IMG/VR virus record: IMGVR_UViG_3300044732_001058
DNA: 64,000 nt
Reading direction: 5' to 3' (one strand)
Origin: an uncultured virus (IMG/VR IMGVR_UViG_3300044732_001058)
Lineage: Duplodnaviria; Heunggongvirae; Uroviricota; Caudoviricetes
The stretch's first letter is position 1. The number at the start of each line of letters is the position of its first letter. The notes under the pieces are model-generated. The model ran no database searches, was not told the DNA's origin, and saw nothing but the letters and a program-made list of their open reading frames with translations. The translations under genes were made by a program, and so were the position numbers. Of this stretch, positions 25,335 through 63,779 are shown piece by piece.

Positions 25335-26330
25335 TTAACCGAATATTTTCATCATATCGTCCATACTCAATGAGCCGCCTTTCTTTTTAGCTTCATCTGC
25401 TAAAGATAAAGTCTTTTGACCTTTAGCCTTTAATCCTATATATTCAAGGTCTTCTGATGTTGCACCAACTATTGAACTAGCTTGATTTTCTTTGTTGTTC
25501 TTTTTTTCAATTGTTTTTTTGGCGTTTTCATTGGCGTTCACATAATCAATTATTTTATCAGGATCGTCTTTAATATCTTGAGGCATTTTATCATTTTGCT
25601 GAAAAACGTTCTTAAAAAATCGAGCATAAATAAGTAATTTTACTTGATTATAAGTAAGCTCGCACACACATTTACCGAAGAATTCAGTAGGATTTTCAGC
25701 AAACGGCATATACAAATTAAAAAAATCTTGCAAAATTAGGTGTTGAATCGTGTTATCATTTATGTTTTTGTAGACCTCTGAGTATTGTTTTATAATACAA
25801 GTTAGAGTTTCGGAATCGATATTATCAAACTCATCTTCTTCAAAAGCTTCTTCATCTAATTTTTTATTTTTATATAAGCATTTTAATATATAATAATCAT
25901 TAACTCTTTCTTCAGCATAACTTTCGGCGGTTCTTTGAAAGAATGATGCTCTTGTATTTTTTAAATCGTTTAAACGTTTTTGCGCCGATTCAATATCATT
26001 ATTAACTCTTGTTATTTCTGATTTTAGATATAATGCTTTCTTTTGTTTATTGAAGTTTTCTATTAAATTTTGTTCTTGTGTTATTAAAGATTCTTGTTTA
26101 TTTGACCATTGTTTCTCTTCAACTAGCCGCTCTAAAGTTTCGCTATTCGTAGGAACGCCGCGTTTTTTAGCTTGATCAAAATAGACATCATAAATTTGAT
26201 CAATATCGACTTGATCTTCCAAAGACAAATGCTTTAAATAAAAAAGATTCTCTAAAACTTTAATCTCAGAGAATCCATTTTTTATATCCCTAAAAGCTTT
26301 TTTGTATTTACTCTGTTGGGACTGTTCCAT
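25335..26330 (-). CDS. Putative tail assembly chaperone (second)
   Basis: Charged helical protein immediately upstream of TMP; positional call. Confidence 0.5.
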   Translation of the reverse strand: MEQSQQSKYKKAFRDIKNGFSEIKVLENLFYLKHLSLEDQVDIDQIYDVYFDQAKKRGVPTNSETLERLVEEKQWSNKQESLITQEQNLIENFNKQKKALYLKSEITRVNNDIESAQKRLNDLKNTRASFFQRTAESYAEERVNDYYILKCLYKNKKLDEEAFEEDEFDNIDSETLTCIIKQYSEVYKNINDNTIQHLILQDFFNLYMPFAENPTEFFGKCVCELTYNQVKLLIYARFFKNVFQQNDKMPQDIKDDPDKIIDYVNANENAKKTIEKKNNKENQASSIVGATSEDLEYIGLKAKGQKTLSLADEAKKKGGSLSMDDMMKIFG

Positions 26331-27087
26331 CTATTTCTCCAATGATTCTATCGAATTCTTCTTTTTCTGTATTACTGGTAAAGAACCAATAACTAATAAC
26401 ACTAGCTAGTTTACTATAGCATTTTTCATAAATTTCATTCTTGTTTTCTTCGTAATCGAACATTACAGATTCTTTAATTTCAAACGTCTTACCGGGAAAC
26501 AGCCATTCATATTCAGGACTCTTTTTACTATTATCCTTGAATTGAGTAAGACTGAGTACGTACCAAAGAATAGCTCTATTTTGAGCTTTAATGTCGGCGG
26601 TGTGATTAAACAAAGTCATATAACTCGTTTCTTTTTCAATAAGAGTTTTACGACGTTGAAGAATTTCAGAAGTTACTTTTTCAATTTTTAGCTTGTAATC
26701 TTCATCGCGTTCTGATTCTGGTTTTAGATTAAGAATAGTTAATCTGCTTTGTAGATCTCCAATTTCTCCAGCGGCAGACACCATGATCTTTGCGTCATTG
26801 TCGCTAATCAAACCACCAGTATCACTATACTTATTTAGCAACATCGCCTTTGTTAAAATTCCATTTCGAATACAGCGGCTCATTTCAATACTGAATTCCA
26901 TGTCAGCTTCTTGCATTTGCTTTCTATTTGGCTGAAGAATATGAATTTCTATTGGAATTTGTTTCTTAACTTTTTCCTTATAAGTGCGTACGACCTGTTC
27001 GCCTTGTTCATTTGTAACCGTTTCAGTCTTGTCCTCTTCGACTTCTGCTGTTTTAAAAATATTGAAACTATACAGTGACTTTGACAT
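26308..27087 (-). CDS. Putative tail assembly chaperone (first)
   Basis: Charged helical protein two genes upstream of TMP; positional call. Confidence 0.5.
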   Translation of the reverse strand: MSKSLYSFNIFKTAEVEEDKTETVTNEQGEQVVRTYKEKVKKQIPIEIHILQPNRKQMQEADMEFSIEMSRCIRNGILTKAMLLNKYSDTGGLISDNDAKIMVSAAGEIGDLQSRLTILNLKPESERDEDYKLKIEKVTSEILQRRKTLIEKETSYMTLFNHTADIKAQNRAILWYVLSLTQFKDNSKKSPEYEWLFPGKTFEIKESVMFDYEENKNEIYEKCYSKLASVISYWFFTSNTEKEEFDRIIGEIDGTVPTE

Positions 27088-27128
27088 AATTTATTTATAT
27101 TAATATATATTCTATAGTTTTTCAACCA

Positions 27129-27134
27129 GTGTAA
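27129..27134 (+). promoter_or_regulatory. GTGTAA motif upstream of the neck operon
   Basis: 8 nt before ATG 27143. Confidence 0.6.
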
Positions 27135-27142
27135 AGGTATAT

Positions 27143-27598
27143 ATGGCTACGAATCTTATATCTGCTTCAGAAAAAACCGCGCTTAATGCGGTTATTGATG
27201 ATGTTCATGAGACTTTTGCTCGCGAAATCACTGTTTTTAAAGAAGCCTCACAGATTGTAATTATTACTGACCCTAACTTTAATCCATTATATAATACTGC
27301 TGGTCAAACCACTTCATATGTAAATACACCAGTTTATAAGACATTTAAAGTAAGAATATTTTATAACGACGACATTAGTAAAAAATACTGGAGCGAATCA
27401 GGACTAGCTTCTCAAATTAAATTAGAAGTCGTTGTTGGATCTGTAAGAATAAAGATGCGAGCAGAAGATTATGATTATATCAAAGATGGTCGCCGTTTTG
27501 ATGTTGATGGAAAACGATTTGTGTTGAATTCTTCATTTAGACCTCATGGTTTATTTGATAATCAATATTATACTCTTTATCTCAAACCTGACGCATAA
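27143..27598 (+). CDS. Putative head closure/stopper protein
   Basis: 151 aa, beta-rich; HETFAREITVFK...RFDVDGKRF...YYTLYL; first gene of the operon ending in the tail tube. Confidence 0.55.
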   Translation: MATNLISASEKTALNAVIDDVHETFAREITVFKEASQIVIITDPNFNPLYNTAGQTTSYVNTPVYKTFKVRIFYNDDISKKYWSESGLASQIKLEVVVGSVRIKMRAEDYDYIKDGRRFDVDGKRFVLNSSFRPHGLFDNQYYTLYLKPDA

Positions 27599-27601
27599 AA
27601 T

Positions 27602-28192
27602 ATGGATTCAGATTATACAAAAATAATGCAAGATTTGCAAGGTGATAAGGAATATCAAAAAGAAGTTCATAGAATAATTGAAAAAGAATTCAATAAAATA
27701 AAAAATCAATATTTACAAGAATTTCTTAATCATCCTATCACTCAAGAAATAAAAGGAGGCATAGATGCAACAAACACATCAGGAACTCTTGCTGGTATAA
27801 CTAATTTATATTCTTTTATTGGGTTTGATGAAGGATCTGATCCCATAAAACCTATTGAAGATTTATTAGAAAAATCTAATTACAGAATTGTTTTTAATAA
27901 TAAAGCTTTAGATAGTTCGGTTATTTTTGACATACCTACGGCTGTGCAAATATTTGAAGTAACACCTATGCCTTGGGCAGTTGGCAGAAGTTGGGCGAGA
28001 GGAATCGAAACTGGAATATCAGGTCTTGGATATTATTTAAAAAAAATAAAAAACAGTCGATCTGGATTCGGCGTTCAATCATCAACCAATCAAATCAGAC
28101 CTGGAACTGTTTTTAAAAATACAAAATACATATCTGATTTAATAAACAAATTCTCTAAAGATTTAAAAAGTTTAAATAAAATTACAGCATGA
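27602..28192 (+). CDS. Putative neck/tail completion protein
   Basis: Position between putative stopper and terminator; SWARGIETGISG; basic C-terminus. Confidence 0.45.
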   Translation: MDSDYTKIMQDLQGDKEYQKEVHRIIEKEFNKIKNQYLQEFLNHPITQEIKGGIDATNTSGTLAGITNLYSFIGFDEGSDPIKPIEDLLEKSNYRIVFNNKALDSSVIFDIPTAVQIFEVTPMPWAVGRSWARGIETGISGLGYYLKKIKNSRSGFGVQSSTNQIRPGTVFKNTKYISDLINKFSKDLKSLNKITA

Positions 28193-29049
28193 AACCGACA
28201 TTTACTCATAATGTTATTAACAGTTTTTTTCTTTGGTTCGATAATTTCTTAATGACCAAAGGTGACGCTTATAAAACTTATACAACAAAACTATATAATT
28301 ATCAAGACCCTCGACTTGGTGGAGATAAAGTTGTTTACGGATCTCCATATAAACAATGGGTATACGATAAAAACATAACTGGCGCAACAATACCATCTGG
28401 TTTTACAATTAATAATCAATTTGTATCTACTGGTACAAGTGGTATGAAAATTGATTTTGATAATGGCAGAATTATTTTTAACAGCGGAGTTTCAACGGGC
28501 CTCAATATAACCGGAACTTATTCAGCCAAAGAAGTAAACAGTTATATAACAGATCAGCCAGAAGATAATTTAATAATTGAAAATAAATTCGTAACAAATA
28601 GTAGATTCACAGTATCTGAAAATTATATTACTCCATATAATCCTGTTACTCCTTGTATATTTGCTTCTATTGAAACGTCTCATAATACCGCATTCGCTTT
28701 CGGCGGTGAAGATGAAACAAAATGCATTGTTAAAGTCGTAGCGTTTTGTGAAAATTTATATCAGCTAGATGGAGTTCTTAGCGTATTTGGCGATTCATAT
28801 AACGAAATATTCAGCATCATACCAATGACAGGTCATCCATTAGGAGAATTCAATGAAATGAAAACTGGCGCGTATCCTACGGGATATGATTATAAAAATT
28901 TAAACAACGCATATAATTCTCAAACACTTTTTATATCCCATGTTGAAACTTCAAAGATTCGCGACAGCGTTATTAAAGAATTAAATCCGATTCTTCATAT
29001 TGGATTTTTAGATTTTGAAATCAAAACTTATCGATACCCTCGATTATAA
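28189..29049 (+). CDS. Putative tail terminator protein
   Basis: Directly upstream of the tail tube; PCIF..IE....FAFGG pattern. Confidence 0.5.
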   Translation: MKPTFTHNVINSFFLWFDNFLMTKGDAYKTYTTKLYNYQDPRLGGDKVVYGSPYKQWVYDKNITGATIPSGFTINNQFVSTGTSGMKIDFDNGRIIFNSGVSTGLNITGTYSAKEVNSYITDQPEDNLIIENKFVTNSRFTVSENYITPYNPVTPCIFASIETSHNTAFAFGGEDETKCIVKVVAFCENLYQLDGVLSVFGDSYNEIFSIIPMTGHPLGEFNEMKTGAYPTGYDYKNLNNAYNSQTLFISHVETSKIRDSVIKELNPILHIGFLDFEIKTYRYPRL

Positions 29050-29119
29050 TTTCACAAAAACAACCAATCACTGTAAAAAATATTAACAATTTAACAACAA
29101 TTAAACAAATAAAAAACAT

Positions 29120-30454
29120 ATGGCAAGAAATCGTGTAATATACCAAAGTCAAGCTTTATTTATCGCTCCAAGTTCTACTGGAGTACAAGTAAGCGGAGCA
29201 GATAGCGCAGGTACTGGATTCACTGCCTCTCCATTTACTCCAACTGATACAGGTTCACTAGCATCCGGTATTTCTCTTCTAAAGAAGATGGATCGCATTC
29301 AAAATTGTAATTTTAATTTTACAATTAATAGACAAGATATCAATGAATTCGGTAAACTCGCTCGTATCGATTCTATTGTTATGGAAGCTCCAACAGTTGG
29401 ACTTGATTTCAGTTATTATGTAACTGATGGCTATAATGAAAGATTAATGGGCTTTAATATTACTGGAGTTACTGATACAAATATCGTTAATGGCGCACAA
29501 GCTATTTCTGGATTACTAGCTGATCTACAAGGTAATAATTATTACATTTTAACTGTAGATGAAGGTGAAGACGTTGTTGGCGGAACATTGACCCCAAATT
29601 CTACTATAGTAGGAATTGGTAATGGATTCGTTAGCGAATATAGTTTTGAAGCTTCTGTTGGAGCTATTCCAACAGCAAGCGTAACTGTTGAAGCTTTTAA
29701 CATCAAATCTGATTCAGCCGAAACCATCACAACCGTAACAACCGGAAATGCACCCGCAACATCAGTGGTTGGCGCAGATATCACCTCAATAACTGGAAAC
29801 AGTGCAGCAATTAATCTTTTTGCTACTCCAGCTACTAAATTTACTTCTATTGGTTCTGCATATAAACTTGATTATTCAAGAGCTTTTTCAGGAGCAATTG
29901 GTGCTGCCGCTGGTGTTAATTTTACAGGATTCACCACTGGAGTAAGTTCTGTAAGCGCATTGCGTCCTGGTGATATAGTTCTTTCTCTTGGAAACAGCGT
30001 TGGTTTAACAAATCTAGCAGACGCTCATATTCAATCATTTAGTTTTACTCTTCCATTGAGCAGAACAATTCTACAAAGACTTGGAAATACATTTGGTTTC
30101 GCAAGAGTTGTTAATGTTCCTATTAATATGGATGTAAGTATTAGCGCAATTGTTTCTGAACTAAAAGATCAAAATCTTTTTGACGCTTTAACAAGTGGAA
30201 CTCAAACTCTTTCAATTACATTGAAAAATAGCTCATCAGCAAATAAGATTGTTTATGAAATCAGAGGCGCACTATTATCTTCTGAAACATATTCTGAAAA
30301 TCTTGGTGATAATCAAACTGTAGATTTAACATATTCAGTTCAAATCGGCGGTGCAAACGACACAACCGCTGGATTGTTTATGTCTGGAAGTTATCAAAAC
30401 GAATTAGACTCTATTACATCAGGCTTCTTCAAGCTTGGCACTGGCAAGATCTAA
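29120..30454 (+). CDS. Major tail tube protein (internally duplicated fold)
   Basis: MARNRVIYQS start; Ser/Thr/Gly-rich; two similar halves (RIQNCNFNFTINRQDINEFG and HIQSFSFTLPLSRTILQRLG); followed by a strong terminator; CTGTAA motif variant at 29071. Confidence 0.8.
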   Translation: MARNRVIYQSQALFIAPSSTGVQVSGADSAGTGFTASPFTPTDTGSLASGISLLKKMDRIQNCNFNFTINRQDINEFGKLARIDSIVMEAPTVGLDFSYYVTDGYNERLMGFNITGVTDTNIVNGAQAISGLLADLQGNNYYILTVDEGEDVVGGTLTPNSTIVGIGNGFVSEYSFEASVGAIPTASVTVEAFNIKSDSAETITTVTTGNAPATSVVGADITSITGNSAAINLFATPATKFTSIGSAYKLDYSRAFSGAIGAAAGVNFTGFTTGVSSVSALRPGDIVLSLGNSVGLTNLADAHIQSFSFTLPLSRTILQRLGNTFGFARVVNVPINMDVSISAIVSELKDQNLFDALTSGTQTLSITLKNSSSANKIVYEIRGALLSSETYSENLGDNQTVDLTYSVQIGGANDTTAGLFMSGSYQNELDSITSGFFKLGTGKI

Positions 30455-30464
30455 AATAGATAAC

Positions 30465-30503
30465 AATAAAAAACCCCAGTCGAAAGACTGGGGTTCTTTT
30501 TTT
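30465..30503. terminator. Bidirectional rho-independent terminator
   Basis: AACCCCAGTC-GAAA-GACTGGGGTT hairpin with an A-tract before and T-tract after, between convergent genes. Confidence 0.9.
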
Positions 30504-30505
30504 AC

Positions 30506-31018
30506 TTATGGATGACCATATCCATACGGATAATAAAAATATCCAGATCCTGTAAATATCGGCGAACCATCTTCACCAGCTACTTGCACAGGCGCAGCTT
30601 GATAAATATTATAACTAGATACTAATCTTTCCATTTCTTCTCTAGCGTCATTAGCTAATCCACGATATGTTTTTGCAAGTTCGTTTTTATTTGTGCGCGT
30701 AATCATTGTGTCGCCTTCACGCAAAGTCACAAAATCTACAGAGCTATCTACTCCGCGCAACACTTGGCGAGTCTTTTTTGTATAAAACTCATACAAGTAC
30801 ATTTGCTTATATATTGATCTTTCTTCTTGTTGAAAAAACCCTGTTGGTTCAAAATTAGAATTTTGTACTGAATATTGGCTGTATATTTTTGTATTTAACA
30901 AACCAACATTATTAGCAAGCCATCCTGAAATATAATAAAATTGAGCATAGCCGCTATCATACTCAAATTCATTCGCGAATATTTCATCAGCTAAATCGTG
31001 TACACTATAAGCTACCAT
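30506..31018 (-). CDS. Putative head-tail adaptor/connector
   Basis: 170 aa, helical; FVTLREGDTMITR beta-hairpin followed by a helix, as in connector proteins; preceded by GTGTAA. Confidence 0.5.
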   Translation of the reverse strand: MVAYSVHDLADEIFANEFEYDSGYAQFYYISGWLANNVGLLNTKIYSQYSVQNSNFEPTGFFQQEERSIYKQMYLYEFYTKKTRQVLRGVDSSVDFVTLREGDTMITRTNKNELAKTYRGLANDAREEMERLVSSYNIYQAAPVQVAGEDGSPIFTGSGYFYYPYGYGHP

Positions 31019-31027
31019 ATATATATC

Positions 31028-31033
31028 TTACAC
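31028..31033 (-). promoter_or_regulatory. GTGTAA motif overlapping the APS kinase stop codon
   Basis: 9 nt before ATG 31018. Confidence 0.6.
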
Positions 31034-31483
31034 TTTTTTATTTAACTTACGAACTAATTCGTTGTATATCATTTTAGAATAATAACTGCTATTCTTACTT
31101 TGAACTTCGATATCAAACTTTTTGGGCGGCTCAAATACTTTATTAGTATCTTCGTATGTTGATTCGTTAATGGTATTCATAAATATTAAAAAATCAGGAT
31201 CAAATTGGTCTCTAGTTTTTTGAAATGGACATACAAAGTCGCAAATGACTATTTCGTTATATTGACCGTACATGTCGGCCAAATCTTTCATTCTTTTACC
31301 TTGACGTTCACGACCAGTTTCACTGAAGTCCCAATCGTTGAATTGTTCACGAACTTTATCTGCATTTAACCAATGACATTTATAATGATGGCTTAAAAGA
31401 TAAGACAAATCTGCCGCTAATGTGGTTTTACCAGATCCCGGCAAACCCATAATTAATACCTTTAAAAACGAACCAATTGGCAT
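31028..31483 (-). CDS. cysC: Adenylyl-sulfate (APS) kinase-like protein
   Basis: P-loop GLPGSGKTT, WLNADKVR, DFSETGRERQ, ICDFVCP, FEPP; shorter than typical cellular CysC. Confidence 0.8.
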   Translation of the reverse strand: MPIGSFLKVLIMGLPGSGKTTLAADLSYLLSHHYKCHWLNADKVREQFNDWDFSETGRERQGKRMKDLADMYGQYNEIVICDFVCPFQKTRDQFDPDFLIFMNTINESTYEDTNKVFEPPKKFDIEVQSKNSSYYSKMIYNELVRKLNKKV

Positions 31484-31493
31484 ATTATATGGT

Positions 31494-32318
31494 ATGGTTG
31501 AAAAGATATTTTTTCAATGTTCACTACCTCGGGCAGGTTCGACACTTTTACAAAATGTGCTGGCGCAAAACCCTGATTTTTACGCCACACCAACTAGTGG
31601 ATTGATTGAAATCTTCCTTAATGCTAGAAATATTTATTCTACAAATATTGAATTTAAGGCTCAAGACATCAATGTAGTTGAACCAGCATTCAAAGCTCTT
31701 TGTAAAGAAGGCATGTTTGCATATTTTAACGCCATCACTGATAAGAAATATGTTATTGACAAGAGCAGAGGTTGGAGCGTTACATACGATTTTCTAAATT
31801 GGTATTATCCAGAACCAAAGGTTATTGTTATGGTTCGCGATCTGCGAGCAGTTGTGGCGAGCATGGAAAAGAAGTGGCGACAATATCAGCACATCGATGC
31901 TGGCCTTCAAAACTGGAACGAACTTCGTAATACTACGGTTGATAAGAGAATCGATTACTTTTTAATGCAAGCGCCGCCACTTGCTGTAAGTATTGATGTA
32001 TTGTATGATACTATTATGCGTAAATTAAGTAAGAAATGCTTATTTATTAAGTTTGAAAACTTCGCCAGTAATCCTCAAAGAGAAATGGAACGAGTATATG
32101 AGTATCTTGAATTACCATTTTATCAACACGACTTTAATAATGTAGAACAAAAGACTTTTGAAGATGACCGTATGCACATTCCTTTTGGCGACCATACAAT
32201 TCAAAAAGTAATCAAACCAGTACCTAACGACTATATAGATATTCTTGGAAAACAGAACTGCGATAATATATATAACAAGTTCTCTTGGTTCTATAAAGCT
32301 TTTAGTTACGATTATTAA
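31494..32318 (+). CDS. PAPS-dependent sulfotransferase
   Basis: 5'-PSB loop SLPRAGSTLL, DKSRGW, 3'-PB VMVRDLRAVVAS, IKFENFASNP; likely start ATG 31494 (MVEKIFF) rather than 31422. Confidence 0.88.
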   Translation: MVEKIFFQCSLPRAGSTLLQNVLAQNPDFYATPTSGLIEIFLNARNIYSTNIEFKAQDINVVEPAFKALCKEGMFAYFNAITDKKYVIDKSRGWSVTYDFLNWYYPEPKVIVMVRDLRAVVASMEKKWRQYQHIDAGLQNWNELRNTTVDKRIDYFLMQAPPLAVSIDVLYDTIMRKLSKKCLFIKFENFASNPQREMERVYEYLELPFYQHDFNNVEQKTFEDDRMHIPFGDHTIQKVIKPVPNDYIDILGKQNCDNIYNKFSWFYKAFSYDY

Positions 32319-32338
32319 TTTCTATAGATAAAAAAATA

Positions 32339-32344
32339 GTGTAA
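32339..32344 (+). promoter_or_regulatory. GTGTAA motif
   Basis: 14 nt before ATG 32359. Confidence 0.55.
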
Positions 32345-32358
32345 AACTAAATACAAAT

Positions 32359-32640
32359 ATGAGCGACCCAACATTCCCAATTATCAATCTACCAAGTGCT
32401 GTAGAAATTCAACAAGCTGCTAATACCAGTCAAATCGAAATCCTTCAAACCACAGACGACCCAATCGGTAAGACCGTAAAGAGTTTGGTAAAGATATCAA
32501 CCACTCCTTACGCTCATAACTGGTATACAGTATGGTCTGGAGATACATATGATCAAGCTGGTCAATGGACGGACACCCAATTGTCTGCCGCCATCGTTAC
32601 TCTAGTAATGGCAGAATATCCTCCTGCTTTGACACGATAA
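32359..32640 (+). CDS. Small hypothetical protein, possibly virion-associated
   Basis: 93 aa; has its own GTGTAA motif and terminator; WSGDTYDQAGQWTD motif. Confidence 0.6.
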   Translation: MSDPTFPIINLPSAVEIQQAANTSQIEILQTTDDPIGKTVKSLVKISTTPYAHNWYTVWSGDTYDQAGQWTDTQLSAAIVTLVMAEYPPALTR

Positions 32641-32675
32641 TAACTGTAGAAAAAAATACCAAAAATACATAAAAT

Positions 32676-32708
32676 ACCTCAAGGACATATTGTTCTTGAG
32701 GTTTTTTT
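32676..32708 (+). terminator. Rho-independent terminator abutting the next start codon
   Basis: ACCTCAAGGACA-TAT-TGTTCTTGAGGT then TTTTTT, with ATG at 32709. Confidence 0.75.
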
Positions 32709-33473
32709 ATGGCTGAAAAAAAGAAAGTATTAATCGCGACTCCATCTTACGACGGTAAACTGGATGTTTATTATATCGACTCACTTCTAAACACTTTATC
32801 ATTAGCTGAAAAGAATAATGTAGAAGTATATCCATTGTTTATTTGTTACGACTCTCTTATTCAACGTGCGCGAAATGATTTGTTTAAACTTGCTTATAGT
32901 AACGATATTGATAATTTGTTTTTTATTGATGGTGATGTAGGATGGAATCCTCAAGATTTTTACAAGCTGGTAAAAAGCGACAAAGATATTATCGGCGGAT
33001 CTTATAGAAAAAAGACTGACAACGAAGAACTTTACGTTGTGAAAGCTCTTGATAAAGATAATTCTAAATTAAATTTGAGCGTTGATAAAGACGGCATTCT
33101 TGAAGTGGCGGGTTTAGGTTGCGGATTCATGAAAATTTCTCGCAAAGCTATGAACGCTTTATGGGAGATTTCCAAACCGTATACCTCAGAAAAAGGTGAC
33201 ACACGAATGGTGTTTGAAGTTGTTTGTGAAGACGGCGATCTTATCAGTGAAGATATTTATATGTGTAAAAAGTGGCGCAATCTTGGTAATAACATTTATC
33301 TCGATACTAACATCACATGTTCGCACACAGGCGCGAAGACGTTCGTAGGAGACGTTGGTAAATGGATCAACTCTTTTAAAAATCAAAACACTTTCAACCC
33401 ACAACCAGCAACTGATTTGTCTAAGTATTTTGTAAAGAATAATAATGAAGATGATTTTAAAGTTCTTGTATGA
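32709..33473 (+). CDS. Glycosyltransferase, GT-A fold (GT2-like)
   Basis: VLIATPSY, SLIQRARN, DxD motif LFFIDGD, GCGFMKISR, SEDIYMC, H.G. Confidence 0.8.
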   Translation: MAEKKKVLIATPSYDGKLDVYYIDSLLNTLSLAEKNNVEVYPLFICYDSLIQRARNDLFKLAYSNDIDNLFFIDGDVGWNPQDFYKLVKSDKDIIGGSYRKKTDNEELYVVKALDKDNSKLNLSVDKDGILEVAGLGCGFMKISRKAMNALWEISKPYTSEKGDTRMVFEVVCEDGDLISEDIYMCKKWRNLGNNIYLDTNITCSHTGAKTFVGDVGKWINSFKNQNTFNPQPATDLSKYFVKNNNEDDFKVLV

Positions 33474-34432
33474 CGGATATTTACGCAGACGTTATTTTAT
33501 TTGATAGCATAGGATCTCCATACGATGGAAATACGATGCACAAATGCGGAATGGGTGGCAGCGAGTTTCAAGCTATTTTACTTCTTGAAGAGTTAGCTGA
33601 AGAAGGATATAAAGTTATATGCCTAAACAATTCTAATAAAGAATCTTTTGTAAATGGAGTGTTGTATGCGCCAAACAATTTGGTTGATAGTTATAAATTT
33701 AAGTGTAAGAATTTAATAATCCATAGGTATAGCGAAATTCCTAAAATCGGTCACAAAAAAGCATTCATGTGGGCAACCGATTTGAATGGCGTTCATAATC
33801 TAAAATTCTATAAGCTATTTGAAGAAAAGAAACTAACTTTAATTACCCTCAGTAATTTTCATAACGATTTGTTTCCAAAGTCTTGGGACAAGCATGTAAT
33901 TTATTTCATGATACCTGATTGGGTGTATGAGTATTCTATACCAGAGAACAAGAAAGATTATATATACGCCAGTAGTTTAATGAAAGGATATTCATCCACA
34001 TTACCATTATGGAAATATCTAAAAAATGAAAAACTACTTAGTAAAACTGATATATTGAATGTTTGTTTACCGGGATACGACAATCCGACCCAAGACATAA
34101 GCGAAAAAGATTATGGAATCAATTATCTTGGAACGTTGAAGTTCAAAGAAGTTATAGAACTGATGGCGAAATGTCGCGGCATGTTTTATGTCAATACTAT
34201 GCCTGAGACTTTTGGCATAAGCGTTGTACTAGCCGACATATTAAAGACGACACCGTTTGTTTATGGTATAAACGGTCTAGGAAGTTTATCTGAATTAATA
34301 AATAATAAAAATCTTACTACCGACATGCAAGAATACATTAATATGTTTAAAACTTATTCAAGCTTAAACGAAACGCCGCGAAACTTCCGCCCAAAGATGG
34401 TTATTAAATGGTGGAAGAAAGTATTGATTTAA
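33470..34432 (+). CDS. Glycosyltransferase, GT-B fold (GT4-like)
   Basis: MGGSE N-terminal motif, YIYASS..KG, PETFGISVV. Confidence 0.75.
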   Translation: MTDIYADVILFDSIGSPYDGNTMHKCGMGGSEFQAILLLEELAEEGYKVICLNNSNKESFVNGVLYAPNNLVDSYKFKCKNLIIHRYSEIPKIGHKKAFMWATDLNGVHNLKFYKLFEEKKLTLITLSNFHNDLFPKSWDKHVIYFMIPDWVYEYSIPENKKDYIYASSLMKGYSSTLPLWKYLKNEKLLSKTDILNVCLPGYDNPTQDISEKDYGINYLGTLKFKEVIELMAKCRGMFYVNTMPETFGISVVLADILKTTPFVYGINGLGSLSELINNKNLTTDMQEYINMFKTYSSLNETPRNFRPKMVIKWWKKVLI

Positions 34433-35058
34433 GGTCTAATAAATAATAGACTTTCGGCAATCAATTCGTTCTTATCGTTCATAACCGTTTCGACTGGCAT
34501 AATATAATCAAATTTTAGATCAAACATTTTGTTTAATATTTGATCTTTATTGCAGCCGCCTTCATTATAATTATTAAAAGACACTTCGGCGATAACAACT
34601 TTAGCGTTTTTAAAAGTATTTATACCGCCTTCTATAATATCTAATTCACTACCTTGAGTGTCTATTTTTATAAGATCGTAAACATCTTTCACACAATCAT
34701 CTAATCTATAAATCGGCAACTCTTCGATTATTAAATTTTGTTCGTTATATGTTTGCGAGTTTTCTTTGTATATAGAATTGCCAGAACAAATTGGACTCCA
34801 TTTTGTTTTATAAAATTTAGTTGTGCCGTTGATTTTACCAAGCAATTTTATTTGATAATCGTAAAGTTGTTTTTGGTATAACTTTTCGCACTCAGCATTT
34901 CCTTCGAATAATAATATGTTTGCGACAGGCCAGATTTGGCGCATAATGTCTGCCGTTTGGCAGACACTTGCACCGATATCTAATATATTTTTAGGATAAA
35001 ATCCTTTGTCTCTGAGTAAGAAACAAATTTGAGAATAATAGTCATAAGAATAACCCAT
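34429..35058 (-). CDS. FkbM-family SAM-dependent methyltransferase
   Basis: ILDIGA, FEGN, RLDD, DLIKIDTQGSELDIIEGG. Confidence 0.85.
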   Translation of the reverse strand: MGYSYDYYSQICFLLRDKGFYPKNILDIGASVCQTADIMRQIWPVANILLFEGNAECEKLYQKQLYDYQIKLLGKINGTTKFYKTKWSPICSGNSIYKENSQTYNEQNLIIEELPIYRLDDCVKDVYDLIKIDTQGSELDIIEGGINTFKNAKVVIAEVSFNNYNEGGCNKDQILNKMFDLKFDYIMPVETVMNDKNELIAESLLFIRP

Positions 35059-35078
35059 GACTATTATATAAAAAAAAC

Positions 35079-35615
35079 TTAACCATTAAAGCTTGGCATT
35101 GGAGGAAATGGAGGAATACTTATATTTGGAGCGGATGTCGGAATGGTGGGCCACACCGCTTGAGTAACATCTGGGATATCTAACATTGTACGCAATTGTT
35201 GTCTGAAGTTTTTAAAATCAAGTTTTGCGGCATCAGATATCGGCGAATCAGGCAATTGAGTGAAATCAGTGATAACTAAATACTGATCGCGAATCATTCT
35301 TATGCTAGTCTCTATTCTGTTTTTTCTTATCTCTTCTTCGGACGGAGTCACATTGACTACAGTAAAAGATTCATGACAAGTTTTATTCTCAATGTTTAAA
35401 GAATAAGATGTTTCGATTTTTTGTTGTATATTAATCGTTGGAAGCGGATCGCTGTTTACAACCCAGAACCCTTCGTCGTTTCCAGACCATGATAAATCAG
35501 CCAATTGCTCATCAGATAGTGCAAATAAATTAGATATATTTTTGTAATTGTTTGGTAACGCCGCTGGCGAAGAAACTATTCGATTATTTACTACTAAAAC
35601 GTAATTTTTATCCAT
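35079..35615 (-). CDS. Tail fibre assembly chaperone-like protein
   Basis: C-terminal IRMIRDQYLVITDFTQLPDSP...FRQQLRTM.D.P....WP motif. Confidence 0.75.
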   Translation of the reverse strand: MDKNYVLVVNNRIVSSPAALPNNYKNISNLFALSDEQLADLSWSGNDEGFWVVNSDPLPTINIQQKIETSYSLNIENKTCHESFTVVNVTPSEEEIRKNRIETSIRMIRDQYLVITDFTQLPDSPISDAAKLDFKNFRQQLRTMLDIPDVTQAVWPTIPTSAPNISIPPFPPMPSFNG

Positions 35616-35617
35616 AA

Positions 35618-36220
35618 TTATTTAGAGGTATAAGTTATTTGCGGATTGATAAAGTTATTTAATAATGATTGTTTAAAATCTAATAAGTTACCAGCCATTG
35701 TTGTTCCTGCTTGTATGTTAGCGCGAATGTTACCTTGGTTTATACCAGTCTGTGCGCTCGCCATATCTTCAAAAGCTTGACGAGTCAAACGACATTCCCA
35801 ATAACGAGATTCGGCGGCTTCAATTTCATCGTATGTATAAATTTTCGGCAAACTATTTATTAGTTTAACAATAGTTTTGATTTCGCGTTCTCTAAAAATC
35901 ATATTTTCTTCATGTTGGCGCAAAATATATTGTTTCTTACAAGCTTCTAGATTGTCAATTTCATCGTTTTTTAATTGTAAACGTTTGATTTCTATTTTTA
36001 ATTTTTCTATGTCAAAACAATCGCCAATAAAGCCATCACGCATAGATTTAAGTTCCATCATTAATTGCAGAAACTTACGTTCTGGCAAATCGTGTTCTTG
36101 CATGACAAACCTTTCTAATTGAAAAGAAGTGCGACCAGCAGTGTATTTAGAAAAATCAATTGCGCCCAAATCAAACTTATTTGAGAACTCTTTTAATTTG
36201 TTATCTAGTAAATTATCCAT
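35618..36220 (-). CDS. Coiled-coil protein, putative chaperone of the fibre tip
   Basis: SFQLERFV...R...Q...E...YWECRLTRQA..D...G.INQGN; between the propeller and the fibre chaperone. Confidence 0.5.
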   Translation of the reverse strand: MDNLLDNKLKEFSNKFDLGAIDFSKYTAGRTSFQLERFVMQEHDLPERKFLQLMMELKSMRDGFIGDCFDIEKLKIEIKRLQLKNDEIDNLEACKKQYILRQHEENMIFREREIKTIVKLINSLPKIYTYDEIEAAESRYWECRLTRQAFEDMASAQTGINQGNIRANIQAGTTMAGNLLDFKQSLLNNFINPQITYTSK

Positions 36221-36225
36221 ATATA

Positions 36226-37185
36226 TTATGCCCCGCTACTGCCATTTATCCAACCTGAATTTGTATCACCCGTAGTGTAACTATTATTACTCCAAGTTTC
36301 TGTTGAAAAAGTTAATTTATGATATGCGCGATTTAATGTATAATTTCTATAACCAGTCCAAACATATCCAACAGTTGCCGTCGCGCTACATACGCCTTGA
36401 AACAACTGCAAACTACCTTCTGGGCTATTAGATCCAGTAGATACTGTTTCTGTTGAAAAAGTTAATTTAATATTACTAGCGCTTGTAACATTTGCTCCAT
36501 TAGCTCTATAACCCCATAATGAATTAGAAAAAGCATATCCCTGAGAATTTGATACACTGTCAGTAGCGGATAAAGTAGACGCTGTATCACTTGTCATAAC
36601 GTATTTATATATAGTATTAGTATTAGCACCGCTACTATTATATCCACCTATTACATAAGCATTATTACTTTCATATAATCCCATAGAAACGTGTCTAGCA
36701 GCGGGTATAGCAGTCGTATTTGTTGCTGTATCGCTTGCTGTTGTTATATAAGTAGTATCACTTCTATATTGACCAAGAGAGTCGCTATAGCCACCCATAA
36801 AATAAAAACGAGACGCTACTATGGTTGGTAAATTAATTGTCGAGCCTCTTCTTTCTACAGTAAAAGAAATAGTGGCGGTAGATTGAACGTCACTGGACGC
36901 AAGTATTTTGTTTTTAACTGTAACAATTCCAGAATTATAACCATTTATGTGATAAATATTCGTAGAACTAAAACCTCCTGCTCCTTGAGATATTCTTGGA
37001 CCAGTATTCGCATTTCTTGTGGACTCACTATCTGTACTAAAAGATATTGTTCTATTATAACCGACATTGCTCTGTCCTCCTGTCACATCTCCAAATAAAA
37101 AATATGCAGATCCAAAACCAGTAACTTGAGTACCAGCAGCAATCGGAGCGACTTGTGTTTTATTGGGGCCAAGAAATTTAATCAT
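36226..37185 (-). CDS. Kelch-like beta-propeller, putative fibre-tip adhesin
   Basis: About six repeats (AYFLFG, IYHING, FYFMGG, AYVIGG, GYRANG, GYVWTG) followed by KLTFSTET-type segments; directly downstream of the giant fibre. Confidence 0.7.
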   Translation of the reverse strand: MIKFLGPNKTQVAPIAAGTQVTGFGSAYFLFGDVTGGQSNVGYNRTISFSTDSESTRNANTGPRISQGAGGFSSTNIYHINGYNSGIVTVKNKILASSDVQSTATISFTVERRGSTINLPTIVASRFYFMGGYSDSLGQYRSDTTYITTASDTATNTTAIPAARHVSMGLYESNNAYVIGGYNSSGANTNTIYKYVMTSDTASTLSATDSVSNSQGYAFSNSLWGYRANGANVTSASNIKLTFSTETVSTGSNSPEGSLQLFQGVCSATATVGYVWTGYRNYTLNRAYHKLTFSTETWSNNSYTTGDTNSGWINGSSGA

Positions 37186-37191
37186 ATGTTA

Positions 37192-40100
37192 TTATAGATT
37201 TTGACCTACGATAATTGCATAAATATTAGTACCGCCATCATAAGTAACAAATTGATAAATATCTCGCTTAGAACTTGCAGTTGTAAGAGTTGGCGCAGTG
37301 CCTCCCGGCCATTTTATTGCGGCGGGCCAAGTTATTGAATAACCAACGCCACCACCAACTGTTACAATTGTCCACATATGAACAATACTGCTTGCTTGAA
37401 TATTTGATAAAGTCAATGTTGTTATTGTTGCGGCGAGAGTTAATTCTGTTAAATTATACTGAGTATCAATTGTTGTAGATGATGCCGCTGTTACTGTTAC
37501 TCTTTCGCCATATGTGTTTCTTGTTCTTACTGCATTTAAAACACTTGTACTAGCAGGATCAACATAATAAGCAGTGTCGTTACTGTCATAAAATATAGGA
37601 GCGCGAAAATCTGTATCAGAATAAGCTGTTCCGACAACGTGTAGTTTTTGTGAAGGACTTGTTGTACCTATACCAACATTACCATCAACAAGAAGCCCAA
37701 TAGTATTAGCGCCAGGACCACCTGCTGTATTTGATAATAAATGAAAATATGTATTTACTGTTCCACTTCCAGGTTGAGTCCTTGGAGTTAAATAAATTCT
37801 AGGATTTCCAGAATTATATCCAGTGTAATATAATTTTACGTTATCGTAAGAAGCATTATCTCCTACATCTCCTAATCTAATTCCTTCACTACCCCCGCCA
37901 ATATTAAAAGCTCCTCTAACATCTAACTTTAGTGACGGACTTGTTGTACCTATACCAACATTACCACTACTATCAACATTTATTCTTCTATTACCTTGGC
38001 CGTCAGAGATTATAATGTTATTGGCAATTGTGGCACTTAATCCTGTGACGTTTGCGCCTAAGATTGTGTTGTAGTTGCCTGTGGTAATACCACGACCAGT
38101 GTTATAACCAATTATTGTGTTTGCGGTTCCTGTTGTAATATCATATCCAGAAGTATCACCCAACGCACTATTACTAGTACCTGTTGAATTTGCATTCATC
38201 GAATTATGACCAATTGCTGTGTTGGACGATCCGGTTGTATTTGTAAATAATGCATATGTACCAAATGAACAATTATAATTGCCAATTGTGTTAAAAGGCA
38301 TTGCATTGTGACCCATTGCTACATTTCTTATACCAGTCGTATTCCACCTTAATGCTTGCAATCCAACAGCAGTGTTTGAATTTCCCGTTGTATTTCTAGC
38401 TAATGTATAATATCCGAATGCACTATTACAAACACCAGTTGTATTAGCATTTAATGCTTTATAACCAAAAGCGCTGTTATTGTTTGTTGTATTAGCTGAT
38501 AAAGCAGCATAACCAAATGCACTGTTGTTGTTACCAACTACGTTATTTACCAGAGCATATTTACCAAATGCACAGTTTCTATTACCTGTCGTATTAGCAA
38601 ATAAAGCAGCAGAACCAAACGCATTATTGTCATTACCAATTGTATTAGCCTTTAAAGAGTCTACACCAAATGCGTTATTGCGAACACCGCCTGTGTTATT
38701 TCTCAAAGCGTATAAACCAAACGCACTATTACTTACGCCTGTTGTGTTATTTAATAAAGACGCATGTCCAACTGCGGTATTATATCTACCAAATGTATTG
38801 TTTGTTAAAGCACTACGTCCAACTGCTGTATTTAAATCACCAGTTGTATTAGCAGACATTGCATATGTGCCAAATGCACTATTGTTACTACCTGTAGTAT
38901 TAGTTCTTAAAGCGTATTTACCAAACGCACTATTATTAACGCCTGTTGTATTAAATATTAAAGCTTGAAAACCAAATGCATTATTATTTGCGCCAATTGT
39001 ATTTCTTTCTAAAGCGCTAGTGCCAAATGCGCTATTACCATTACCTGTGGTATTAAGATTTAGTGCTTGATAACCAACTGCGGTATTATATAAACCAATT
39101 GTATTAGATAATAAAGATGAAAAACCTACAGCGGTATTGTATATACCAGTTGTATTAGCGTATAATGAATATGTACCAATTGCGGTATTATTACTGCCTG
39201 TTGTATTTGCTTGTAATGATTGTTGTCCAAAAGCTGTATTATAATTACCAAAAGTATTAAATAATAACGATGAACGACCAAACGCACTATTACTAATACC
39301 CGTTGTATTATTTATAAGTGCATACATACCAAATGCTGTATTATTTGAACCAGTTGTATTGTTTTGTAATGAACCACGACCAAAAGCACTATTACCATTA
39401 CCTATTGTATTTGTTTTTAAAGAGCCATAACCAAACGCACTATTACTACTAGCTGTTGTAGTATACATCAACGCTTGAAGACCAAATGCACTGTTCCTAG
39501 TACCTATTGTGTTATTTCTTAAAGCTTCTTTACCAAATGCACTGTTAAATTCACCAATTGTATTAGCATTTAATGCTTTGTAACCAAACGCACTGTTATT
39601 ACTTACAGTATTATTAAGCAAAGCTTGAAAACCAACAACGGTATTATTACTACCAGTAGTATTAGCGAATAATGAATTATATCCTATAGCGGTATTACTA
39701 TTTCCAGAAACATTATTATATAAAGTTGTATAACCAAACGAAGTGTTATTATTACCAACTGTGTTCTGAGCTAAACTTTCATATCCAACCGCACAATTAA
39801 ATTGACCAGCTGTATTATTAACTAAAGCTCTATTACCGACTGCAACATTTCTTATACCAACCGTATTTGATTTTAAAGCATAAAACCCAAATGCACTGTT
39901 AAAATTACCCGTGGTATTATTTAATAAAGCATTTGTACCAAAGGCGCTATTACCTTCGCCTATAGTATTTGCTTGTAATGTTCCATTGCCGACGGCTGTA
40001 TTATTGCTACCAGTTGTATTATAATATAATGAATTAAAACCTACTGCTACATTATTAACACCTATTGTATTACTTACTAAACTACTATAACCAAATGCGC

Positions 40101-60819: not shown

Positions 60820-61533
60820 TTAAGATGAGAATATATCGTTTTCTTTTAATAACAATTGAGCTTTCACATACAACATTTTTTTTAAATTTTTTATTTGTTT
60901 GTAACCAGCTTTTCTTCCTTTTTCGCTTGTTTTAAACTTTAAAACTTGGGCTACTTGATCATCGCTAAGATTGTCTATAAAAAACATTTTATAAATAAAG
61001 AAATGCTTATCTCCTAAATTGCTTTTCATTAAACCGTGAAGTTTACTTTCAGCATTTTTATAATCGTAACTTATACTTGATTCACAATTCATAAAATAAT
61101 TTTTATGATTCTCTAAGCTTACAGTCATCTTGACATCGTAAGCGGATTTTTTTACTTTCTCCCACTTAGCGTATAATGGGCATTCATTACATTGTTTGCC
61201 GCTGGTTGTAAAACCACATGACATTTCTATTCCAGAATCACCTTCTTTATTTTGATTAAATGGACAAGATAAACAAGGACGCGCAAAACTTGTATAATTA
61301 TTTCTTATTATATTTCTAATTTGATTCGTGACTATACGATTCACCCAAGGTTCAATCGCTCGCGATTGATCCCACAGATGCCATTTTTTATATATATGAA
61401 GTTTGATGACTTGCTCTATATCTTCAAAATCAAACCAAGTAATCGCTTTTAACTTCCATTTATTTCTGCGCTTTTTGATTACTTGGTTAATAATCTCATA
61501 CATGTCTTCAAAATTTTTCTTTTTACGATTCAT
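60820..61533 (-). CDS. Phage RNA polymerase sigma factor (sigma70/ECF-like) with a Cys-rich insert
   Basis: Region 2-like DFEDIEQVIKLHIYKKWHLWD...PWVNRIVTNQIRNIIR; region 4-like FFIDNLSDDQVAQVL; insert CLSC...C...CNEC. Confidence 0.75.
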   Translation of the reverse strand: MNRKKKNFEDMYEIINQVIKKRRNKWKLKAITWFDFEDIEQVIKLHIYKKWHLWDQSRAIEPWVNRIVTNQIRNIIRNNYTSFARPCLSCPFNQNKEGDSGIEMSCGFTTSGKQCNECPLYAKWEKVKKSAYDVKMTVSLENHKNYFMNCESSISYDYKNAESKLHGLMKSNLGDKHFFIYKMFFIDNLSDDQVAQVLKFKTSEKGRKAGYKQIKNLKKMLYVKAQLLLKENDIFSS

Positions 61534-62714: not shown

Positions 62715-63779
62715 ATGGTTTTTCACTGTTTGAGCGTTCCTTACTCGCCTACTAGAAAAGATGTTTCATTATGTGCTTTTGTGCAAAAGGTTTATAAGTT
62801 TTGCGACGAAATGACTAAAAGGGGTCATACTGTTTATCATTATGGTCATGAAAACTCTATTGTTAATTGCACAGAACATATTAATGTTACTAATAATGAT
62901 ATATTAATTAATAGCTATGGCAACTTAAATGATTGGAAGATCAAAGGTTTTGATCAAAACGTTAATACAAAAGCGGTTAATGCGTTTAATGACAATTGTG
63001 TTACAGAGTTAAAAAAAAGAATAAAATCAAGTAATGAATTTATATTATGCTGGTTTGGGTTCGCGCATGAACCATGTGTTAAACACTTTTATGATAAAAC
63101 TATAGTAGTAGAACCAAGCATAGGTTATGATAGCATGTTCGCGCCAATTAAGATATTTGAAACATATAGTCAAATGCATAAAATGCATGGTCATTCTAAA
63201 ACACATGTTGAATTAGGATGCGAACATATTGTTTATCCCGGCTTTGATCCTGACGACTTCATATACAAAAAAGAAAAATCAAATACAGCATTATTTTTAG
63301 GCAGGATTATAGAAGAAAAAGGCGCACAGCTTGCTTATGATATCTGCAATCATGTCGGACAAGATATTATATTTGCAGGGCCAAACATACTGAATCTTAA
63401 AGAGACTAAACATTGTAAATTTGCAGGATTCGTTGGTCCTATTGAACGAATGAATTTACTAAGCGATGCGAAATTTTTATTTGCTCCTTCGTTGTTTATG
63501 GAGCCATGCAATTGGACAGTTATTGAAGCTCAATTTTCAGGAACGCCCACTATTACAACAAATTTCGGCGGCTTTACCGAAACGGTATTACAAGGAGATA
63601 CAGGATTAAGATGTTCTACTACTAATGATATGATTTACGCCACTCAAAACATAGATAAACTTATCAATCCTGAAAATTGTTATAAAAACGCTAACTCAAG
63701 ATTTACAATTAAACATCAGTGTGATTATTATGAATATATTTTTCGTAACCTATCTTTAACTCAGATAAGTCAGATGTAA
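62715..63779 (+). CDS. Glycosyltransferase family 4 (GT-B)
   Basis: RGHTVYHYG, LFLGRIIEEKG, EPCNWTVIEAQFSGTPTITT..GGFTETV..G.TG. Confidence 0.88.
   Translation: MVFHCLSVPYSPTRKDVSLCAFVQKVYKFCDEMTKRGHTVYHYGHENSIVNCTEHINVTNNDILINSYGNLNDWKIKGFDQNVNTKAVNAFNDNCVTELKKRIKSSNEFILCWFGFAHEPCVKHFYDKTIVVEPSIGYDSMFAPIKIFETYSQMHKMHGHSKTHVELGCEHIVYPGFDPDDFIYKKEKSNTALFLGRIIEEKGAQLAYDICNHVGQDIIFAGPNILNLKETKHCKFAGFVGPIERMNLLSDAKFLFAPSLFMEPCNWTVIEAQFSGTPTITTNFGGFTETVLQGDTGLRCSTTNDMIYATQNIDKLINPENCYKNANSRFTIKHQCDYYEYIFRNLSLTQISQM

Follow-up and report, generated by a model that had tools for sequence, protein, structure and literature searches.

Why does a tailed phage carry, among its virion genes, a sulfotransferase, a homolog of adenosine-5′-phosphosulfate (APS) kinases, predicted glycosyltransferases, and a methyltransferase? 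The question is raised by an island at positions 31028 to 35058 of a 64-kb stretch of DNA (here called the window) from an uncultured freshwater virus of the Caudoviricetes, IMG/VR record IMGVR_UViG_3300044732_001058. The window is the virion-structural portion of a phage genome, and all window-wide negative results given below cover these 64 kb only. The original prediction for the island had described five enzyme genes as a chain that glycosylates, methylates, and sulfates virion proteins. All five genes exist where it had placed them; the sulfotransferase (ST), the GT-B glycosyltransferase (GTB320), the FkbM methyltransferase, and the APS-kinase homology of the kinase (KIN) stood up to closer analysis, with the caveats that the kinase is lid-less and that the GT-A glycosyltransferase (GTA254) is only probable. 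A sixth gene, encoding a conserved acidic 93-aa protein (s93), had gone unmentioned (coordinates are in Table 1). Our preferred answer, held tentatively and with slightly less than even confidence, is that the island is a portable glycan-tailoring cassette, fed by 3′-phosphoadenosine-5′-phosphosulfate (PAPS), that decorates the phage’s own fibers.

We compared the island with 47 related viral loci, in which the ST sequences form 10 clusters at 80% identity, two of them mere fragments. Because the same gene set recurs in at least 21 of the 47 loci, the clustering of these genes is not due to chance. Unrelated backbones, at least two (the window type and the L018-23 type, which have no flanking genes in common), carry the block ST-s93-GTA254-GTB320-FkbM, and s93 is found wherever GTB320 is (the window-type, L018-23-type, and L026 arrangements) and not in others. 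Between two backbones (L003-L023 versus the window), ST is 92 to 97% identical and s93, GTA254, GTB320, and FkbM are 58 to 71% identical, which suggests that, of the cassette genes, only ST was recently exchanged. On the window’s own backbone (L011-13 versus the window), the cassette genes are 73 to 97% identical and the flanks 45 to 52%; because the cassette is better conserved than its flanking genes, we conclude that it is exchanged between phages. The island DNA had no match among isolate phages. Eighty PhoH-anchored loci contained no ST, KIN, or nucleotidyltransferase, and all of them belong to the window lineage (at least 71% identity) and are useless as a control.

Across these loci, ST keeps company with very large genes. 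In 7 of the 10 clusters and 21 of the 47 loci, ST has an open reading frame (ORF) of at least 800 aa no more than 3 kb away; at a distance of up to 5 kb, the count is 32 of the 47 loci. As a background, the genes lying within 3 kb of such an ORF numbered 18 of 133, 23 of 183, and 50 of 319 in three phage genomes (13 to 16%). The ST of L027 begins 38 bp after a 1,127-aa ORF, and a complete 304-kb genome (G007) carries two STs, each behind a giant ORF. Several of the ST-adjacent giants have fiber-type Peptidase_S74 domains or NTxxGxxAL-type repeats (the latter in L030 and L048), and the large neighbor of ST in L045 is a glycosyltransferase-domain protein. The connection of the cassette to fiber genes, as originally proposed, is also visible within the window: FkbM lies 20 bp 3′ of the fiber-assembly gene on the same strand and is therefore the last gene of the fiber operon. 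The pattern looked for in virion glycosylation, with glycosyltransferase genes lying among the structural genes and tied to one of them across relatives, was found.

ST and KIN are divergent, with start codons 10 bp apart (the true start of ST is the ATG at 31494, not the GTG at 31422). The end of GTA254 and the beginning of GTB320 share 4 bp, an arrangement that marks the two genes as translationally coupled, and GTB320 and FkbM are convergent with a 4-bp overlap. A promoter scan of positions 26000 to 37500 was uninformative (56 sites versus 52.9 ± 6.9 in shuffled sequences). Metatranscriptome contigs (170 to 612 nt, 90 to 99% identity) span all six genes and their neighbors in four of four freshwater or lake runs; one (32334-32805) bridges s93 and GTA254, reading through the hairpin between them, and another (34757-35368) bridges FkbM and the assembly gene. 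These contigs give no strand, level, or timing and may stem from DNA carry-over, and we do not take them to prove that the genes are expressed.

Three arrangements at the cassette or its borders were observed in passing. L021 has two tandem ST-GTA254 pairs in the order ST, GTA, ST, s93, GTA, GTB (L021:6314-11355). In L020, a GIY-YIG/NUMOD3 homing endonuclease gene and a Mom-family gene border the cassette (L020:14085-16003), and in L026, an ORF with a Cas12f1-like TNB domain does so (L026:8039-8371).

ST is a PAPS-type sulfotransferase with intact PAPS-binding loops and predicted activity. It scores 66.3 bits against Sulfotransfer_3 (PF13469; gathering threshold, 27 bits) and also matches Sulfotransfer_1 (E = 5.9e-11) and phrog_27463 (E = 2.6e-39). 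In 11 ST sequences, R13, G15, S16, and T17 of the 5′-phosphosulfate-binding loop and R115, D116, R118, and S123 of the 3′-phosphate-binding (3′-PB) stretch are invariant, and the motifs PRAGST and RDLR..V.S are invariant or almost so. The best curated (NCBIfam) match is NoeE (E = 7.8e-12); at 44.6 bits against a cutoff of 500, ST is not a NoeE equivalog. No longer or fused forms of ST were found in our search, which is weak evidence.

KIN is a lid-less mini APS-kinase homolog with putative activity. It matches Pfam APS_kinase (PF01583) at 52.6 bits (gathering threshold, 21.1) over residues 9 to 93 only, corresponding to profile positions 5 to 91 of 152, and misses all six NCBIfam APS-kinase cutoffs (best, TIGR00455; 45.7 versus 138.7 bits). 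The P-loop reads GLPGSGKTT, and the DFSETGRER and CPF stretches align with those of PAPSS2 and archaeal APS kinases; we take the F-S...R and C-P-F stretches to be the APS-binding ones. When a profile of KIN and eight relatives was compared with the PDB, the 25 best of 89 matches (E ≤ 0.001), which span E values of 2.5e-23 to 1.6e-11, were APS kinases or APS-kinase-type domains, except for one adenylate kinase 9. The family alignment omits ∼33 lid residues, passing from residue 116 to residue 150 of chain 2yvu, and the family members are 142 to 162 aa long versus 175 to 211 aa in solved stand-alone APS kinases and kinase domains. The missing part is the mobile lid, located between the core and the YEPP region at the C terminus. 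In addition, the D-G-D motif is replaced by N-A-D in KIN and its close relatives, while D-G-D is retained in Salvo gp32 and in the kinases that adjoin ST in other lineages. Compared with CysC and with the Sat plus CysC pairs and fusions (PAPSS1/2), KIN thus keeps the P-loop, F-S...R, and the C-terminal YE-P-x-x-P but differs in the lid, in the N-A-D motif, in its scores below the NCBIfam cutoffs, and in having no sulfurylase partner that we could find in the window.

A candidate for such a partner is present in other lineages. KIN-type genes stand next to ST in five of the eight nonfragment ST clusters (mini APS kinases of 142 to 162 aa in L027/28, L030/31/33, L035, L040/41/46, and L045), and every one of these loci also has, beside the kinase, a 131- to 154-aa HxGH nucleotidyltransferase (Pfam CTP_transf_like) with the motifs GR(W/Y)QPxHxGH, GRGVGY, and ISAT.IR, sometimes accompanied by a DUF2061 membrane protein. 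In Xylella phage Salvo, the kinase and the nucleotidyltransferase are fused in gp32 (L001:4992-5738), with the nucleotidyltransferase as the C-terminal half, and a weak Sulfotransfer_4 match lies two genes 5′ of the fusion. The mini nucleotidyltransferase is a candidate minimal ATP sulfurylase. It is mainly because of this recurrent pairing of kinase, ST, and nucleotidyltransferase that we regard KIN as supplying PAPS, and not as a generic P-loop kinase or a sulfur-assimilation gene; in agreement with the original prediction of a donor-linked pathway, the link between kinase and sulfotransferase looks functional. As also noted originally, no ATP sulfurylase was found in the window, either by Pfam on the scanned ORFs or with a hidden Markov model (HMM) of the mini nucleotidyltransferase. 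The HMM did not find the mini nucleotidyltransferase in the window’s near relatives; the nearest records are fragments, 29 to 42% complete, so their lack of a match is uninformative.

GTA254 is a probable GT-A enzyme (GT2/GT62-like). None of its 522 homologs is listed with a Pfam glycosyltransferase domain, and its PHROG matches are phrog_1574 (E = 1.3e-24) and, weakly, a glycosyltransferase PHROG (E = 8.8e-4). Among 28 family members, F72, I73, D74, and D76 are invariant (FIDxD, a D-x-D motif) and QRARN is conserved; below the Pfam thresholds, 14 of the 28 match Anp1 (best E, 0.0011) and 11 match GT2 (best E, 0.00048). Profile comparison by hhalign gave E values of 0.0012 to 0.0034 over 60 to 66 columns against GT2 domains, versus 0.088 and 0.022 against the GT25 and GT8 profiles. 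An Atlas search linked GTA254 to viral Anp1/GT2 clusters (0.98), which we treat as a lead only. Sequence and profile searches of the PDB sequences returned nothing significant for either GTA254 or GTB320. Most GTA254 relatives share a C-terminal tail that is acidic-hydrophobic and conserved, DDxFKVL(V), preceded by a linker whose length varies (33400-33473 in the window); this tail may be a docking peptide.

For GTB320, none of 26 family members matched any Pfam glycosyltransferase family (E ≤ 0.1), Glycos_transf_1 included, and comparisons with single GT4 proteins were insignificant. The signal came with a deeper profile: 75 sequences aligned with five Pfam-confirmed GT4 proteins at a probability of 96.4 (hhalign; E = 1e-9; 229 columns). 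An AlphaFold model of high quality (predicted local distance difference test, 96.8; predicted template modeling score, 0.93) had 236 Foldseek matches in the PDB at E ≤ 1e-3. The top matches were GT4 enzymes with template modeling (TM) scores of 0.6 to 0.72, led by tll1591 (E = 5.4e-10; TM score, 0.68 to 0.72) and followed by BshA, WaaG, PimA, and PglA. The predicted structure confirms GTB320 as a divergent GT-B, GT4-like glycosyltransferase. The domain has at least 1,233 cluster representatives at E ≤ 1e-3 and no Pfam model, and it occurs in proteins (P0241-P0389) of up to 1,834 aa. Of 26 long relatives, 14 also contain GT2, 5 Methyltransf_24, 2 FkbM, 3 a 2OG-Fe(II) oxygenase, 8 TPR, and 1 GT25, with methyltransferase fusions in 6 of the 26; among viral proteins, its best matches by structure are phage proteins with several domains whose names include GT-A type and FkbM. 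Because these fusions mirror the gene content of the cassette, they support one shared pathway. The window’s FkbM passes both cutoffs (Pfam, 44.6 versus 22.7 bits; TIGR01444, 51.3 versus 37.7 bits).

If the products act together, which proteins receive the glycan? The original prediction had named the Ser/Thr-rich Gly-X-Y stretches of three fibers as the natural acceptors. The three fibers are real: all match Pfam Collagen, and their triplets are mostly GTS and GSS. The 3,820-aa fiber has 104 triplets in its N-terminal part (61 GTS, 40 GSS), the 517-aa fiber has 115 (58 GTS, 39 GSS), and the fiber at the window’s edge has 126 in its C-terminal part (GTS, GSS, and GIN). Past its Gly-X-Y stalk, the 3,820-aa protein continues for more than 3,000 aa in NTxxGxxAL-type repeats, which we take to be similar to trimeric-autotransporter head repeats and which hold 197 N-x-S/T sites.

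The expected co-occurrence of the cassette with GTS/GSS fibers across relatives failed. G005 (a 127.7-kb record, 88% complete) has 13 colinear head-region genes in common with the window (46 to 85% identity) and Ser/Thr collagen-like fibers at the same place, but it has no ST and no KIN. Conversely, G006 and G007, which are complete, ST bearing, and from other lineages, have no Gly-X-Y run of at least eight triplets. We therefore conclude that the cassette goes with giant fibers generally and not with GTS/GSS stretches, leaving the collagen-like acceptors unsupported. From ∼8 kb past the end of its fiber gene, G005 carries an alternative glycan kit (L130:10697-18146) with GT4, GT25, GT11, and GT10 genes, a sub-threshold Maf-type (MptE-like) domain, a CMP-sugar synthetase, NeuB, and a NodU-type carbamoyltransferase. 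The region beside the fibers may therefore be a variable locus for decoration, at which relatives seem to swap one glycan kit for another. A third glycosyltransferase of the window, the GT4 that had been counted with the island, is confirmed by Pfam as an enzyme gene and falls outside the mobile cassette: it is 70% identical in G005 and adjoins PhoH there as well, and this conservation at the same place makes it a backbone gene.

The favored reading can be set out as follows. Late in infection, in the cytoplasm, the two glycosyltransferases would assemble a short glycan from host nucleotide sugars, FkbM would O-methylate it, and ST would add sulfate from PAPS. KIN would top up the PAPS from APS, itself supplied by the host or by a gene outside the window. 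The acceptor would most likely be the phage’s giant fiber proteins before assembly, with no special place for the Gly-X-Y stretches; the long stretch of adhesin-like repeats, or some other virion protein, would be an equally likely target. The fibers would end up coated with a methylated, sulfated glycan. A wider claim is possible and, to us, more doubtful, namely, that tailed phages of lakes and seas coat adhesin-like fibers in this way by means of a portable cassette and a minimal PAPS pathway consisting of a lid-less kinase of ∼150 aa and, elsewhere, an ATP-sulfurylase-like nucleotidyltransferase of ∼135 aa.

A number of observations weigh against fiber decoration. With N-A-D for D-G-D and without a lid, the conversion of APS to PAPS by KIN is only predicted, and the assignment of GTA254 as a glycosyltransferase comes from sub-threshold matches. 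Inside the window itself, 58% of the genes have a giant ORF no more than 3 kb away, so the local position of the island says little; the ST operon also runs antiparallel to the fiber operon, 4.9 kb from the giant fiber gene. L026 has no giant ORF in its 19 kb. The absence of ST and KIN from G005 and of Gly-X-Y runs from G006 and G007 belongs here as well, and for this phage and its relatives alike, virion decoration is predicted from genes. Other lineages pair ST with GT8, GT9 (heptosyltransferase), GT25, and HtrL-type genes, all of families typical of lipopolysaccharide (LPS)-core work. In L027/28 and the L036 type, no glycosyltransferase is recognizable near ST; because two lineages lack one, the acceptor of the sulfate need not be a glycan built by the phage.

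The LPS-core-type neighbors lead to the main rival, which we consider rather unlikely: that the cassette glycosylates, methylates, and sulfates the LPS, capsule, S-layer, or pilus glycoprotein of the host. It would do so, for example, to block superinfection or to stop progeny from sticking to debris, and its proximity to fibers would reflect a gathering of receptor-related accessory genes there. The G005 kit, with NeuB, a CMP-sugar synthetase, and fucosyltransferases, resembles surface-glycan loci, and NoeE, the curated match of ST (below cutoff), is the sulfotransferase for a secreted glycolipid signal. Published genome papers likewise read sets of phage glycosyltransferase and other glycan genes as host cell-wall modification (PMC12801897). 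However, Pfam and hydropathy analyses found no flippase, polymerase, initiating or integral-membrane transferase, acetylase, or membrane segment in the six cassette proteins (highest 19-residue hydropathy, 1.32), FkbM closes the fiber operon, and ST lies directly behind giant fiber-like ORFs in several unrelated backbones, far above background. Family scans of the window also found no lysogeny genes.

We consider it improbable that ST sulfates Tyr, Ser, or Thr residues of the fibers directly while the glycosyltransferases and FkbM make a separate decoration. Consistent with such a role, ST matches no solved structures other than those of protein-tyrosine sulfotransferases 1 and 2 (TPST1/2; six distinct sequences, E = 1.6e-8 to 2.8e-4), with a closely similar 3′-PB stretch, and the STs of L027/28 and the L036 type follow a giant ORF with no glycosyltransferase in sight. 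On the other hand, a Thr of ST aligns with the Glu past the 5′-phosphosulfate-binding loop that we take to be catalytic in TPST/RaxST-type enzymes, in a stretch where the alignment is weak, and the best curated match is a carbohydrate sulfotransferase. ST also stands beside GTA254-family genes in four of the eight nonfragment clusters. Tyrosine sulfation usually needs acidic residues, in which the fiber repeats are poor.

Modification of phage DNA, with glycans on hypermodified bases being methylated or sulfated in turn, seems very improbable, even though the closest relatives of KIN among cultured phages (37 to 44% identical) include those of Ralstonia phages phiRSL1 and RsoM2USA, the Mom-family gene of L020 lies 1.2 kb from the cassette, and GT-B enzymes do act on phage DNA (the distant Foldseek matches of GTB320 include, at rank 46, a DNA alpha-glucosyltransferase). 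Family scans found no hydroxymethylase or other base-modification gene in the window, the cassette is surrounded by virion genes, the recurrent neighbor of ST is a giant fiber-like ORF, and by structure GTB320 is most like GT4 enzymes that act on sugars, lipids, and small molecules. Least probable of all is that KIN is a cysC-like gene that boosts host cysteine synthesis, unrelated to its neighbors: its Pfam match would allow this, and cysC-type genes are counted among the auxiliary metabolic genes in viromics papers, but KIN-type genes repeatedly adjoin ST, the two start codons are 10 bp apart, and family scans of the window found no PAPS reductase or sulfite reductase.

Fiber decoration by the cassette would have partial precedents. 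According to Freeman et al. in 2023, cytoplasmic glycosyltransferases that mycobacteriophages encode among their structural genes reportedly O-glycosylate the phages’ own virion proteins, with the C termini of capsid and tail-tube proteins as acceptors. The likeness lies in the placement of the glycosyltransferase genes; here, giant fibers are in question, as judged from genes. To our knowledge, the mycobacteriophage system includes no sulfotransferase, APS kinase, or methyltransferase. Rhizobial Nod-factor tailoring resembles the cassettes in combining O-sulfation, O-methylation, and O-carbamoylation of sugars, with counterparts in the NoeE-like ST, in FkbM, and in the NodU-type carbamoyltransferase and fucosyltransferases of G005. 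NoeI is an FkbM-type 2-O-methyltransferase, and NolO/NodU is a carbamoyltransferase. The acceptor there is a lipochitooligosaccharide, however, and ST scores far below the NoeE cutoff.

Closer in gene content are giant viruses, for which sulfated fibril glycans have already been inferred from gene clusters. A 2022 review in Chem Rev describes Megavirinae clusters of glycosyltransferases and methyltransferases for surface fibrils; those of Moumouvirus australiensis, Cotonvirus, and Tupanvirus include sulfate-metabolism enzymes (SAT/APS kinase in Tupanvirus), from which the authors infer sulfated sugars (PMC9614988). Both cases share a virus-encoded cluster of glycosyltransferases, methyltransferases, and sulfate enzymes, and sulfation is inferred from genes in both. 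The giant viruses infect eukaryotes, though, and have a SAT/APS kinase of full size along with pathways for sugar nucleotides, whereas here a tailed phage has a 151-aa lid-less kinase, no sugar-nucleotide genes, and a mobile cassette. Mimivirus, according to another paper, encodes collagen-like proteins together with enzymes that hydroxylate and glycosylate them (PMC9546862). The chemistry described is hydroxylysine-linked glucose and galactose, added by GT-A-type collagen glycosyltransferases, whereas the window has no hydroxylase; a likeness is the fusion of the GTB320 domain to a 2OG-Fe(II) oxygenase in 3 of 26 long relatives. Among bacteria, the collagen-like exosporium glycoproteins BclA and BclA3 have Thr-rich Gly-X-Y stretches that are O-glycosylated by a dedicated cytoplasmic glycosyltransferase, SgtA, encoded next to them (PMC7157674). 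That is a bacterial spore surface, and the co-occurrence of cassette and collagen failed outside the window lineage. Bacillus BclA glycans contain methylated sugars, and we know of no sulfation on BclA exosporium glycoproteins.

If the wider claim about phages of lakes and seas is right, it would provide the first sulfated virion known for any phage (we found no literature report of one) and new minimal forms of both PAPS-making enzymes; the lid-less kinase and the mini nucleotidyltransferase are candidates for the smallest. If the fibers are sulfated and glycosylated, host recognition, stickiness to particles or mucus, and protease resistance in water would depend on a post-translational coat that is invisible to genome annotation and that fiber-based host prediction would miss. 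According to a 2023 paper on marine OM43 phages, it is unclear what phage sulfotransferases do (PMC10580990); the gene set described here makes that question directly testable.

Table 1. Positions of the cassette genes, neighboring features of the window, and mini nucleotidyltransferases of related loci
Feature	Position	Strand	Match or remark
Fiber 3′ of J-like tail-tip gene, >1,267 aa	2..3802	-	Pfam Collagen 9.7e-53; frame exits window
Tape measure, 2,591 aa	17531-25306		PF10145
Strong bidirectional terminator-like hairpin	30468-30499		Ends unit of KIN and 170-aa gene
170-aa gene, 9 bp 3′ of KIN, same strand	30506-31018	-	No Pfam/PHROG family found
KIN, mini APS-kinase homolog, 151 aa	31028-31483	-	Pfam APS_kinase E 6.6e-14
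ST, PAPS-type sulfotransferase (predicted), 274 aa	31494..32318	+	Sulfotransfer_3 E 6e-18
s93, conserved acidic protein, 93 aa	32359-32640	+	No Pfam or PHROG family
Terminator-like hairpin between s93 and GTA254	32676..32702	+	12-pair stem, then T run
GTA254, probable GT-A glycosyltransferase, 254 aa	32709-33473	+	GT2/Anp1-like, sub-threshold
GTB320, predicted divergent GT-B (GT4-like, retaining-type fold) glycosyltransferase, 320 aa	33470-34432	+	
FkbM-family S-adenosylmethionine methyltransferase, 209 aa	34429-35058	-	Methyltransf_21 (PF05050) 2.3e-11
Tail-fiber assembly chaperone	35079-35615	-	Phage_tail_APC 3.9e-8; phrog_4912 (tail fiber assembly)
Fiber accessory protein, 200 aa	35618-36220	-	
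Kelch-like Ser/Thr-rich fiber accessory protein, 319 aa	36226-37185	-	Kelch match sub-threshold
Giant fiber, 3,820 aa	37192..48654	-	Pfam Collagen 2.6e-39
Collagen-like fiber, 517 aa	48711..50264	-	Pfam Collagen 1.2e-50; tail-fiber PHROGs
GT4	62715-63779		Pfam-confirmed
Mini nucleotidyltransferase	L027:11501-11899		
Mini nucleotidyltransferase	L030:12593-12988		
Mini nucleotidyltransferase	L035:11274-11729		
Mini nucleotidyltransferase	L041:11283-11747		
Mini nucleotidyltransferase	L045:8234-8605		

The rest of the window has the makeup of a siphovirus-type phage with a GC content of ∼33% and a structural region encoded mostly on the minus strand. In minus-strand order, the large terminase and head genes are followed by the 517-aa collagen-like fiber, the 3,820-aa fiber, three fiber accessory genes (35079..37185, among which phrog_1409 was also matched), the island, the tape measure, the lambda-type tail-tip genes L, K, I, and J, and the third, collagen-like fiber, which leaves the window. 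The length of the tape measure implies an unusually long tail. Near the terminase, a 237-aa protein (60820-61533) has a sub-threshold Sigma70_r2 match (E = 1.8e-4) and is possibly a phage sigma-like factor.

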